Shown here: positions 3,710 through 8,894 of the stretch, one piece after another
Layout: each line of letters opens with the position of its first letter
Numbering within the stretch: the stretch's first letter is position 1
Origin: a virus
Virus record (IMG/VR): IMGVR_UViG_3300007735_000801
Direction: 5' to 3' (one strand)
DNA: 64,000 nt
Notes under the pieces: generated by a model
The model's input: only the letters and a program-made list of their open reading frames with translations
Told to the model about the DNA's origin: nothing
Database searches by the model: none
Program-made: the position numbers and the translations under genes

Positions 3710-4132
3710 CTAACATAATACTTTCTCCTGTAATCCTAAACTTATTTTCTGATCCAACACATTGTGTTTCATCCAACGACTCCTGACAATATATCTGATT
3801 ACAGTAGGAACTAGACGCTTGCCCTTTGTGCCACACTCTGTGTCGAGCATGATCCAGTCCCTTTCCGTACCAATACAGCCCCACAACTCCTTGATGGTGT
3901 AGCGATTAGTATAGAATCTGCCTTCTTCTGCCATATCCATGATGTCAACATACCAAACGCCATCTTGCAGAACGGCATGACCACGATAGAAGGTGTAGTC
4001 CCATACGCCATACTCATCAGGTTGCTCTGCCTTTTCCTGATAAGTCCATTGCCACAGCGCATCATGGTGTTTCACACGATTGGCTTGAAATTCATCGCCA
4101 CACTTCAGAGTCTTTATGATACGGTCTTTCAT
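3710..4132 (-). CDS. hypothetical protein
   Basis: 140 aa ORF with RBS AAGGA; WQWTY motif weakly resembles the paralogue family. Confidence 0.65.
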   Translation of the reverse strand: MKDRIIKTLKCGDEFQANRVKHHDALWQWTYQEKAEQPDEYGVWDYTFYRGHAVLQDGVWYVDIMDMAEEGRFYTNRYTIKELWGCIGTERDWIMLDTECGTKGKRLVPTVIRYIVRSRWMKHNVLDQKISLGLQEKVLC

Positions 4133-4138
4133 AATAAT

Positions 4139-4387
4139 TTAATCCTTTCGTTTCTTGCCATGCTTCTTTCTGTTGTAACACGCTGAATGGTATCTCCAAC
4201 ATCCACCACTATTTTCCACAGAGATTTCCGTGTCAATATAGATTTGTTTGCCGCATTCGTCGCACTCGTATCCTGCACATTCGGCGCAAGCCCATCCGTC
4301 ATCGCTTGGAATACGATTCACGAACTTGCCGTAGGGAAATGCGGTACTTGATCCGCAATGCACACATGGGTCGATTGTGTTGCTCAT
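4139..4387 (-). CDS. small zinc-finger protein
   Basis: CxxC (CVHC, CAEC, CDEC) and HxxC motifs. Confidence 0.65.
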   Translation of the reverse strand: MSNTIDPCVHCGSSTAFPYGKFVNRIPSDDGWACAECAGYECDECGKQIYIDTEISVENSGGCWRYHSACYNRKKHGKKRKD

Positions 4388-5269: not shown

Positions 5270-5719
5270 TTATCGGTTTTGCTCGTAAGAGTTGTGGTGA
5301 AGGTGAAGTTCGGTGCGCCAATCATAGGTGGCAGGATCATTACCGTCCCAATGACCATCATTAACAGTAACACCACAGCGACGATCCATGAGTCGTGCTT
5401 CCTGTTGGGCTTCACTCCCATCATAGGGATTAACACCATAAAAGTCTGCAAGGCGGCGTGTGGACTCCTCTTGATTCAGGATCATGGTGTCAGCCTCTAC
5501 CTCTGCCACCGCAGTCCACATGAGGCGGCAACAAGCCATGTCTAATTCGTCGGTAAACCAATAGAGTACATCACGAAACAGGCGATCTGTGCCAAAGCGG
5601 AATACCGCTTTACAGTATCCGTCACCATCATGTCCTGCTGAGTGCAGGGGACGAAGGCGAGCATTGCGACTGGCAAAGGTCTGGGCGAAGTCAGCGTACT
5701 GTGCGAGTGTTGGAGTCAT
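5270..5719 (-). CDS. hypothetical protein (first gene after a cassette promoter)
   Basis: RBS AAGGATAC, 5' hairpin and promoter directly upstream. Confidence 0.75.
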   Translation of the reverse strand: MTPTLAQYADFAQTFASRNARLRPLHSAGHDGDGYCKAVFRFGTDRLFRDVLYWFTDELDMACCRLMWTAVAEVEADTMILNQEESTRRLADFYGVNPYDGSEAQQEARLMDRRCGVTVNDGHWDGNDPATYDWRTELHLHHNSYEQNR

Positions 5720-5798: not shown

Positions 5799-6102
5799 AT
5801 GGTAATTGAAGATTTTTAAAAGATTTTTATCGTGTCAGATAGGAAATAGTGGGGCGAAATGGGGCGAAGTGGGGCTGGGATAGGATATGTGGAGTTTTAG
5901 CGTAAAACAGGGGTAAGAGTCTGTGCCTCAACTCGCATCCCCCAACAGCCCTCTCAGAGGCTCTCAGATGCCCTAGGAACTGTCCGTAGCCTTTTTCCCG
6001 CCATCAGCACCCCCCAAGCGTGGACAACGCCCTGCGGCTTTAGATACGCTCTGCCACGATCTGAGGAATCTGAGGAATCTGTGAAATTATTTAATTTTTC
6101 TC

Positions 6103-6130
6103 TTGACTTCTCCGAAATCGGTGGTATACT
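6103..6130 (+). promoter_or_regulatory. plus-strand promoter TTGACT-N16-TATACT, convergent with the array
   Basis: Near-consensus hexamers, AAATCG in the spacer, AT-rich upstream tract; no ORF downstream. Confidence 0.7.
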
Positions 6131-6244
6131 TGGAGCAGACGCAGAGGTGCTACGGCTGTCCTCTGAGCGCACCGAGTTATGGGCGGCTGTGGCGTTGGGT
6201 GGCAACTATCAACAGGCGAGTCCGATAACTGGAATAATAATAAA

Positions 6245-6472
6245 ATAATAAAGCCTCATTCGGTGGCTCTAAGTCAGAGTCGAATGAGGCTCATGGCAGG
6301 GTGTGGCAGACACCTTGCCTGAACTGGGATTTATACCCCGCCTGACACTTTTCCCCCTGTTGAGGGTACTAGGCGAACAACGCAGGGTGAACAGGTGTTG
6401 CTGACACCCATGACAGAGCAGATAGGTGTTGTTTATAAGCACTCACCTACAAGGTTTTTGTATTCGTGTCAT
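6245..6472 (-). ncRNA. candidate structured non-coding RNA (about 225 nt)
   Basis: Lies between a consensus promoter (6479-6506) and a terminator (6252-6291); only a 9-codon ORF; several complementary stems. Confidence 0.6.
6252..6291 (-). terminator. intrinsic terminator
   Basis: AGCCTCATTCG...CGAATGAGGCT stem followed by a T-rich tail on the minus strand. Confidence 0.75.
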
Positions 6473-6478
6473 GCCCCT

Positions 6479-6506
6479 ATTATACAGCCGATTTCCACCG
6501 TGTCAA
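6479..6506 (-). promoter_or_regulatory. promoter TTGACA-N16-TATAAT
   Basis: Perfect consensus hexamers. Confidence 0.9.
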
Positions 6507-6682
6507 GTGGAAAATTAAATTATTATTGTGCAGTCCGATAACTTAGCCGTCCCATAACACCCCCTGCAACTATCAACTGGCGACGCAAAGTCCGATAACT
6601 TGCGGCGAAATAATAATAAATAAAAAACCCCCCTGCCGTTTTACGGGCAGAGGGGTCAGACCTTTCAAAGATCGTCAGGGGA

Positions 6683-7660
6683 TCAGGCGTTCACCGCCAT
6701 CCACGCTTCAGCCTGAGCGTAGGCTTTCTCCTTGATGGTCGAGCCGACCCCGAACAGGTTCGACTCCAAACGCAGGGAGTCATTGCTGTCCTCACCCTTC
6801 ACAGTACGCTCATGATCCACCCATTGGGTGATCGCATTCACAGCCGACCACAGGCTACCCGCAGACCGCATACCTGTCTGCTTTGTGTCAACCCAAAGGT
6901 TGGTACGCCACGCATCCAACACCTGCTCGTAGCGAGTATTGCCACGCCCTGATGCCTTTGGAGTTCCGTTCATGGAGTTATACACCTCCTGAAAGAACAC
7001 ATCCGCACTAGCCGTAGTCACTTCACGCTGTGCCAAACTGTTGCAGAACTTAGTGAAAGACTCAGCCTGTCCCATTCCTGCTTCAACCCATTCCTTGATC
7101 ATGCCAAACCGTGCTTTCGAGCCTGATCCGTGACGAATGGATGCCGAGTCAGCCTTGCCCTTCATACCCGCCAAAGCCATCATGAAAGTGTTCATGCAGA
7201 CAATGCGTTGAGCATTCAAGCCAAGTGTGGTAGCCCAACTCGTATCATGGCTAGTACCAATAAAAAAGTTATTATTAACCACATCACGAGGATCGCCGCC
7301 AATGTTCACCTGACCCAAGTCAACTTGGAAGAAGACTCGTTTGCCATTGTTGATTGAACCCACTTGGGTGCAACTAGTACCGCTGAAGTTAGTGATCTCA
7401 TAGCAGAGATCAGCCAACTCATGGTTCTGAATGGAAGTGTAGCCTTCCTTTGCAACAGCAAACACAAAGCCTGTGTCCTCACGCACAATCGCCCTGTAGT
7501 CACCGCCTGAGTACGCCGCACCGTCAGCACCGCAAGCCACGATAGGCAAGGTGGAAACCTTCCAATCCAAACCTGCCTTCCGCATCATGGAAATCGGGTC
7601 AGCCGTCAAGTTAGCCTTGTCAGCATCAGTAGCATTGTAAAGTTGAATCGTAGAAGCCAT
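6683..7660 (-). CDS. DUF932 family (phage/plasmid-like) protein
   Basis: AGLDWKV, AIVREDTG, YTSIQN, TSHD, RIVCMNT, IRH and GSLWSAVNAITQWVDH motifs. Confidence 0.85.
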   Translation of the reverse strand: MASTIQLYNATDADKANLTADPISMMRKAGLDWKVSTLPIVACGADGAAYSGGDYRAIVREDTGFVFAVAKEGYTSIQNHELADLCYEITNFSGTSCTQVGSINNGKRVFFQVDLGQVNIGGDPRDVVNNNFFIGTSHDTSWATTLGLNAQRIVCMNTFMMALAGMKGKADSASIRHGSGSKARFGMIKEWVEAGMGQAESFTKFCNSLAQREVTTASADVFFQEVYNSMNGTPKASGRGNTRYEQVLDAWRTNLWVDTKQTGMRSAGSLWSAVNAITQWVDHERTVKGEDSNDSLRLESNLFGVGSTIKEKAYAQAEAWMAVNA

Positions 7661-8624: not shown

Positions 8625-8894
8625 TTATTTGGCGAACAGTCTGCCGCTGATGCGTTGCCGCCTACGCTCAGCCGCCTCCTCAGGCGTACCCTTGCTGTCC
8701 TCGATCTGAATGCGAACATCACGCAACTGACGCTCCAAGTACTCCACCTGTTCACCCAACTCACGCCGAACCGATGCTCCGAAACTTCCCTCCTCAGCCA
8801 TAGCGTCATAGGGAACATTCGCAAGGTCATCCAAGCGAGTCAGACAATCCTTGAGTGTATTCTCAAGCCACCCCAACCTGACTAACAGATTCAC
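8625..8894 (-). CDS. hypothetical coiled-coil protein
   Basis: GTG start overlapping the upstream stop (GTGA). Confidence 0.65.
   Translation of the reverse strand: MNLLVRLGWLENTLKDCLTRLDDLANVPYDAMAEEGSFGASVRRELGEQVEYLERQLRDVRIQIEDSKGTPEEAAERRRQRISGRLFAK

Follow-up and report, generated by a model that had tools for sequence, protein, structure and literature searches.

In a 64,000-nt stretch of viral DNA (IMG/VR record IMGVR_UViG_3300007735_000801; "the window" below means this whole stretch), we identify on the minus strand of positions 6241-6472 what, on balance, we take to be a selectively maintained non-coding module made as an early RNA of about 220 nt. Comparison with its homologues shows that the module is real, non-coding and under selective constraint, and that it is probably an RNA. 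A functional RNA is the best reading of the element because it is constrained, does not code, holds a fixed 3' place in its transcription unit, has kept a promoter after gene loss, and varies in ways compatible with wobble pairing. The predicted layout is a short A-rich leader, a hairpin P1, a 120-nt near-invariant core, a hairpin P5 and an intrinsic terminator. In relatives that carry a gene at this site, the module would be made as the 3' untranslated tail of mRNAs for interchangeable genes. In the window's lineage, deletion of a 107-aa gene together with its leader set a perfect promoter directly on the module, and this arrangement would yield a stand-alone primary transcript. We infer that the module is transcribed, that RNA rather than DNA is the active form, and that the RNA acts in trans via a conserved protein or nucleic-acid partner. 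The element is, in our reading, a candidate functional phage RNA (or DNA site) outside known families.

Genomic setting and layout of the element

The window comes from a T4-like myovirus, with gp6-like and other baseplate wedge proteins, a gp32-type single-strand DNA-binding protein and four tRNAs; a blastn search found no relative of it at the DNA level among cultured phages. The upstream neighbour of the element is the gene for a DUF932 protein of 325 aa (6683-7660, minus strand), and a literature search on DUF932 returned nothing relevant to the element. In every relative that reaches far enough, the element lies one cassette downstream of the DUF932 gene. The features of the region are as follows.

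6479-6506, minus strand: early sigma-70-type promoter, TTGACA-N16-TATAAT, 12/12 consensus match
6451-6472, minus strand: A-rich leader, including the start of a 9-codon mini-ORF (6472-6443)
6422-6450, minus strand: predicted hairpin P1, with a conserved GUAGG/CCUAY base and a replaceable distal part and loop
6300-6421, minus strand: near-invariant core, 11 of 123 columns variable, 93-98% identity to the window
6295-6319, minus strand: predicted hairpin P5 (GGCA, an A-C mismatch, GGUGU; loop CUGCC), which folds alike in all 7 complete homologues
6241-6290, minus strand: intrinsic terminator, a hairpin (6290-6253) with a U-rich tract (6252-6241), from the minimum-energy fold and compensatory pairs
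6200-6232, minus strand: cassette-junction boxes GTTATCGGACT and GTTGATAGTTGC that close the unit (families D6, D11 and D12; invariant in 7 relatives)
6103-6130, plus strand: promoter TTGACT-N16-TATACT, its -10 box preceded by TG; a copy from the early promoter family, inverted so that it faces the element

An earlier note on this DNA, made from the letters of the window, had described a perfect promoter here, and the 12/12 match at 6506-6479 bears it out. Three sites in the first 15 kb match at 12/12, this one among them, and it is a member of a repeated cassette family, its flanks being common to about 12 other early promoters; it is also 12/12 in the homologous loci L014, L006/L007 and L011. 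The transcription start predicted by the same note, near 6472, falls 7 nt past the -10 box, and the sequence beginning seven bases past that box reads ATGACACGAATAC. The leader opens with bases that derive from the 107-aa gene found in L008 and L010, namely its stop codon and 3' flank.

A terminator had been placed at 6252-6291, and the hairpin at 6290-6253 indeed folds, with two compensatory pairs in relatives; a simple hairpin scan overlooked it because of its long apical part. In L010 the two pairs are changed on both sides, with 100% and 97% of cells paired. Judged by this covariation, the terminator is functional.

On the 3' side of the terminator, the usual junction boxes are followed by a 400-nt gene-free node that contains invariant blocks, for example at 5960-5990. 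There is no coding sequence for 400 nt after the terminator, and the next gene beyond the node has its own promoter. Both hexamers of the plus-strand promoter at 6103-6130 are invariant in 7/7 relatives, and a transcript from it would run antisense to the element if it passed the hairpin that the two directions share. Antisense RNA over the element is possible since this hairpin lacks a U-tract in the plus-strand direction. The AT-rich upstream flank and the spacer words of this promoter, which lies in the node (5830-6200), are those of the minus-strand early promoters, inverted.

Homologues and the exchanged gene slot

We searched for homologues by way of the DUF932 protein, which gave one IMG/VR contig and ten close metagenomic loci. 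A scan of IMG/VR with two flanking proteins and four exact patterns, drawn from element and node, found only one related contig. The element is carried by L006/L007 (mutually identical), L008 (which is the contig also labelled L001), L009, L010, L011, L013 and L014; that of L013 is cut by the contig end, and seven complete homologues were available for the folding of P5. The alignment holds 8 sequences including the window, all from one narrow phage clade. Every locus long enough contains the element exactly once, and in all loci it is the last item before the terminator of its cassette. It is single-copy in the window and in a 154-kb relative, and an nhmmer search of the window and all loci with a profile of the core gave no additional copy, however divergent. 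The slot between promoter and element is occupied as follows.

Window, L014 and L006/L007: empty
L008, 3860-4183: 107-aa gene, with a diverged 109-aa homologue in L010 (4074-4403)
L011, 1172-1366: 64-aa gene
L009, 2531-2992, and also L013: 153-aa gene

The three slot genes are mutually unrelated ORFans. Their proteins (107/109, 64 and 153 aa) have no match in Pfam, and of 5.8 billion proteins only two are closely related to the 107-aa one. The 107/109-aa protein carries a QCHCC motif. In 5 of the 9 related loci, the element is the 3' untranslated end of a protein-gene cassette, and in all loci the common sequence begins at most about 15 nt upstream of P1.

The first nine transcribed bases of the window match exactly the end of the 107-aa gene of L008 (ORF 3860-4183): they comprise the last base of a Lys codon, the TGA stop and 3' flank, and the homologous flank is found in L010. 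Relative to L008, the window lacks about 400 nt that make up the 5' leader and the ORF, and it keeps promoter, module and terminator. Because the end of the 107-aa gene, its stop codon with the 3' flank, is retained, we regard the window's RNA-only cassette as a derivative by ORF loss. The deletion junction is identical in the window, L014 and L006/L007 (the DUF932 proteins of these loci are 94-97% identical to that of the window), which suggests a single deletion event in a common ancestor. The proposal that one cassette is dedicated to a non-coding RNA thus needs qualification: the element is non-coding, single-copy and conserved between promoter and terminator, but the cassette is a deletion derivative of one in which the element is a 3' UTR, as it is in those five loci. 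An apparent RNA gene can arise simply through the loss of an ORF upstream of a conserved 3' module.

Sequence constraint on the core

In the 8-sequence alignment, 11 of 123 columns vary in the core, as against 154 of 385 in the adjacent non-coding node of the same genomes. The node, non-coding DNA at 60-450 nt from the core, served as the baseline; pairwise identity is 93-98% in the core and 76-87% in the node. The segments that flank the core diverge as well, the distal part of P1 occurring in three unrelated versions and the linker before the terminator differing, and the terminator of L010 is only 74% identical to that of the window. At third codon positions of the DUF932 gene, identity to the window is 59-80% across relatives. 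In L007 the core is 96% identical, compared with 68% at DUF932 third positions and 65-76% at third positions of the downstream gene, and in L010 the core reaches 98% versus 60% at DUF932 third positions. In L014, L009, L008 and L011, the downstream 149-aa gene has 89-93% third-position identity to the window, so the neutral baseline in these loci is not far below the core. The case for selection, as read from these alignments, rests mainly on L007, L010 and the contrast with the adjacent node.

The 149-aa gene (5270-5719, minus strand) and the DUF932 gene (6683-7660, minus strand), only 1 kb apart, differ sharply in divergence: the four relatives with 89-93% third-position identity in the former have only 59-80% in the latter. 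Such mosaic divergence between neighbouring early genes points to recent exchange of sub-kilobase blocks, and part of the conservation of the core could reflect recent exchange, given this mosaic and the 89-93% values of the downstream gene.

Coding capacity

Between promoter and terminator, the window has ORFs of 9, 25, 26 and 57 codons. The 57-aa frame has a GTG start (6442-6269) and the 26-aa frame an ATG start (6411-6331). The earlier note had listed only the 9-codon ORF; it was right that there is no real gene, and it missed the longer frames (57, 26 and 25 aa), which we do not count as genes because they are broken by stops or indels in relatives. The 57-codon frame contains a TAA in L011, L007 and L013 and is shifted by indels in L008, L007 and L009, and in L010 there is a stop just upstream and the start codon is absent. 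The 26-codon ATG frame is shifted past residue 12 in L008 and L007. No conserved reading frame exists on either strand of the 8-sequence alignment, and the element lacks a third-position pattern of variation. The ATG of the 9-codon ORF (6472-6443) is the Lys-stop junction of the deleted gene, and this ORF is absent from L009, L011 and L013. A start at the predicted +1 would make the RNA begin with the leaderless AUG of this ORF, the UGA of which sits within the 5' arm of P1.

That the element encodes a small protein, be it from the 57-aa GTG, the 26-aa ATG or the 9-codon leaderless ORF, strikes us as barely credible. It has in its favour that these frames are open in the window and that the shortest would begin at the predicted +1. 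It is opposed by the in-frame stops, the shifting indels, the missing start in L010 and the lack of a third-position pattern, and the deletion created the ATG of the 9-codon ORF, which three loci lack.

Secondary structure

The consensus predicted by RNAalifold comprises P1, a four-way junction, two further hairpins and the terminator. Pairing with evolutionary support is confined to P1, P5 and the terminator. By the RNAalifold pair count, compensatory changes on both sides occur in the terminator only, at two pairs. Wobble-preserving transitions occur in P1, at the 46/124 pair and in P5. The UAGGUG/CACCUA helix proposed earlier survives as P1, though with a loop that comes in three versions; G-U to G-C and G-C to G-U changes keep the pairing on the minus-strand RNA only. 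P5 folds to one shape in all 7 complete sequences. In the type II sequences each of its arms is shorter by one base, the 5' arm by a G and the 3' arm by a C, as a paired loss, and one of its pairs runs through the series A-U (L007), G-U (L008) and G-C (L009). These changes represent few independent events, as they are linked on few haplotypes.

The core itself offers less to compare. Of its 35 predicted pairs, 32 never vary, two vary one-sidedly to wobble, and one (G127-C138) is broken in L009 and L010. About 8 of the 11 variable core positions fall in predicted loops, an outcome towards which the prediction itself is biased. When the homologues are folded singly by minimum energy, the central structure differs among them. 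Compared with shuffled sequence, the core without the terminator has a z-score of -1.79 on the transcribed strand and -1.62 on the opposite strand; the core fold is thermodynamically unremarkable, barely above shuffled sequence and equally so on both strands.

Several pairings that had been drawn from the window fare differently against the homologues. An outer helix AUGACA/UGUCAU cannot be general because its 5' partner is missing from L009, L010, L011 and L013. The cross-pairings GGGUGU/ACACCC and ACACCU/AGGUGU are disfavoured relative to local hairpins, since with them the lost G and the lost C would no longer be partners. The segments CCCU/AGGG and GGG/CCC are complementary as claimed, but they are invariant and thus without covariation, and one GGGG/UCCC pair is broken in 2 of the 8 sequences. 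The possible CGCCU/AGGCG pseudoknot holds in part, its terminal pair being lost in 3 sequences. The two-domain fold as a whole, which was to stand or fall by compensatory changes in homologues, is not upheld: the central domain shows none, there being hardly any variation in it.

Motifs inside the core

A 15-nt motif, GGTGTC-N-GC-N-ACACC, occurs twice on the minus strand, at 6394-6408 and at 6300-6314, where it overlaps P5; no further copy exists in the 64 kb with one mismatch allowed. As RNA, the twin motifs could form two 5-bp hairpins with similar pentaloops, and as DNA they could form two inverted repeats 94 bp apart. A TATAAAT box (6329-6335) followed after nine bases by the GGCA..UGCC hairpin reproduces the spacing of the -10 box and leader hairpin of other cassettes, and the GGCA..UGCC base of P5 resembles the +1 leader hairpins of those cassettes. 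No -35 box precedes the TATAAAT, and the promoter scan lists nothing there. The arrangement may have originated from a cassette junction; TATAAAT and P5 could alternatively be an unrecognised internal start. A UGCUCU stretch at 6420-6415 resembles the start of boxA.

Two further candidates were rejected. The first was a T4-type late promoter within the element: this phage has its seven TATAAATA sites in front of late genes, without exception on the plus strand, and what the element contains is TATAAATC in the minus-strand direction. The second was a perfect 13-nt complementarity between the core (6385-6397) and a minus-strand early mRNA (8745-8757), which is not conserved; it is kept only in the closest relative, L012, and is probably due to chance.

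Searches against known families

The earlier note could not assign the element to a known family, and our Infernal-type search of Rfam likewise leaves it unmatched. At gathering thresholds, Rfam 15 finds only three tRNAs in the whole window, and at E<=10 over 5900-6900 it gives no match that overlaps 6292-6472 on either strand. All four tRNAs found by ARAGORN lie at 20.0-23.7 kb, and around 6.3 kb it reports nothing. Searches by blastn against cultured phages, plasmids and E. coli genomes yielded only one chance match of 36 nt, and a single 20-mer from the invariant core, sought in 185,579 GTDB species genomes, gave three isolated chance matches, not in arrays. This result, for the one 20-mer, bears on a possible RNA anti-CRISPR that would mimic a solitary CRISPR repeat of the host.

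The functions proposed earlier were a decoy, an antitoxin mimic or a polymerase-binding RNA, and they find no echo in these comparisons. ToxI-like tandem repeats with a unit of roughly 34-36 nt are absent from 6253-6472, and there is no adjacent toxin-like ORF. The 6S RNA models give no match, and the predicted folds are branched or local hairpins rather than a rod.

Alternative explanations

What is conserved might be a DNA site acting in cis, either as twin GGTGT-N5-ACACC operators for a dimeric phage or host protein or as a replication origin or regulatory hub that takes in all 650 bp without genes, from the element through the node, with their converging promoters, junction boxes and AT tracts. 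We consider this unlikely, though it deserves serious weight: the primary sequence is conserved irrespective of predicted pairing, no other site in 64 kb has the palindromic motif of the twins, the two strands fold with equal stability, and the adjacent node adds invariant blocks along with a converging promoter that is itself invariant. The origin version gains from the use of promoter-derived non-coding transcripts by T4-type origins. A nearly invariant block of 120 bp is nevertheless long for operators, and neither iterons nor an AT-rich unwinding tract occur inside the element for an origin. The element also fills precisely the interval from stop codon to terminator in a transcription unit, and the G-U-preserving changes in P1 and P5 would give C-A mismatches if the other strand, or a cruciform, were what pairs. 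We give little credence to the element being a functionless leftover, that is, an old 3' UTR or a decayed promoter-leader-terminator kept similar through recombination during co-infection and serving as a homology arm only. Swapping of T4-type cassettes by composite motifs is documented (PMC2839356, PMC4122927), the divergence in this region is mosaic, and the TATAAAT, 9-nt spacer and GGCA..UGCC hairpin look like a -10 box and leader that lack a -35 box. This explanation, however, needs recombination boundaries exactly at the core in every lineage, since the P1 loop, the linker, the terminator and the node all diverge. L007 and L010 have diverged on both sides and yet keep a core that is 96-98% identical, and the ordinary cassette junctions of this phage do without the element.

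Less credence again goes to a cis-acting RNA signal, which would govern mRNA processing or stability or, as a put-like or riboswitch-like polymerase modifier, control read-through of the terminator. The element is always at the 3' end of its unit directly before the terminator, many cis regulators are built in this way, with a conserved sensor-like core ahead of a terminator, and P5 resembles the 5' leader hairpins of other cassettes. Yet the element is kept under a perfect promoter with no upstream gene in the window, L014 and L006/L007, and read-through would enter 400 nt of non-coding sequence before a gene that has its own promoter. The invariant core showed no alternative pairing with the variable arm of the terminator, and Rfam gives no match to a cis regulator. 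Within our preferred reading, an RNA that would act in trans, we incline to a platform for protein binding: predicted loops are as conserved in primary sequence as predicted stems, and there are two similar hairpin motifs. The conservation of loops and stems, together with a central fold that is not robust, also leads us to favour a partner-binding RNA over a simple base-pairing regulator. A bolder version, quite unlikely in our estimate, is that the core represents a new class of phage RNA with a complex, pseudoknotted tertiary fold and conservation at the level of aptamers or ribozymes; it would stay fixed at an early locus where all else is swapped because it binds or disarms a conserved host factor, and the antisense promoter, equally conserved, would be its off-switch. 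If this were true, the host factor, for example a component of defence or RNA decay, would be hit in the first minutes of infection.

Comparison with known systems

The two similar small hairpins on an early transcript and the boxA-like UGCUCU recall the put sites of HK022 and the nut sites of lambda. The element differs from these in that its hairpins are 94 nt apart rather than adjacent, the loops differ from boxB, and it directly precedes a strong terminator with nothing coding behind. Phage T4 itself makes the stable RNAs known as species 1 and 2, or RNAs C and D, which are non-coding, 120-140 nt long and of unknown function; they lie in the tRNA cluster and are processed from a tRNA precursor. 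The present element is set apart from this description by its distance of 14 kb from the window's tRNA genes and by its own early promoter.

Bacterial small RNAs derived from 3' UTRs, such as the CpxQ and SroC types, are closer in arrangement. Like them, the element shares the terminator of the upstream mRNA and is better conserved than its surroundings, lying between a stop codon and an intrinsic terminator with conservation beyond the neutral level, and its RNA could come from mRNA processing or, in the window, from its own promoter. Unlike CpxQ and SroC, it is conserved over 120 nt, far beyond a typical seed, and our analysis identified no seed, Hfq-type features, target or processing site.

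The early regions of T4-type phages have been viewed as stores of exchangeable ORFans that evolve fast; here, a non-coding block stays fixed among them. In these hyperplastic regions, genes are gained, lost and replaced between composite promoter/terminator motifs (PMC2839356, PMC4122927), and the units concerned have been described as promoter-early stem-loop (PeSL) cassettes (Arbiol et al. 2010, PMC2839356; Comeau et al. 2014, PMC4122927). The early region of the window is PeSL-like in being an array of small ORFans in which every gene has its own stem-loop terminator and a strong early promoter of the sigma-70-like kind. Promoter and terminator flank small variable genes, and the cassettes are polymorphic: the slot gene is inserted, deleted or replaced between close relatives, with a net difference of about 400 nt between the window and L008. 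The PeSL is, however, a short composite terminator/promoter motif, whereas here an extra, near-invariant non-coding block of 170 nt extends from the slot to the terminator. This block is absent from the other cassettes of this phage and, unlike a PeSL, it is kept when the gene is lost.
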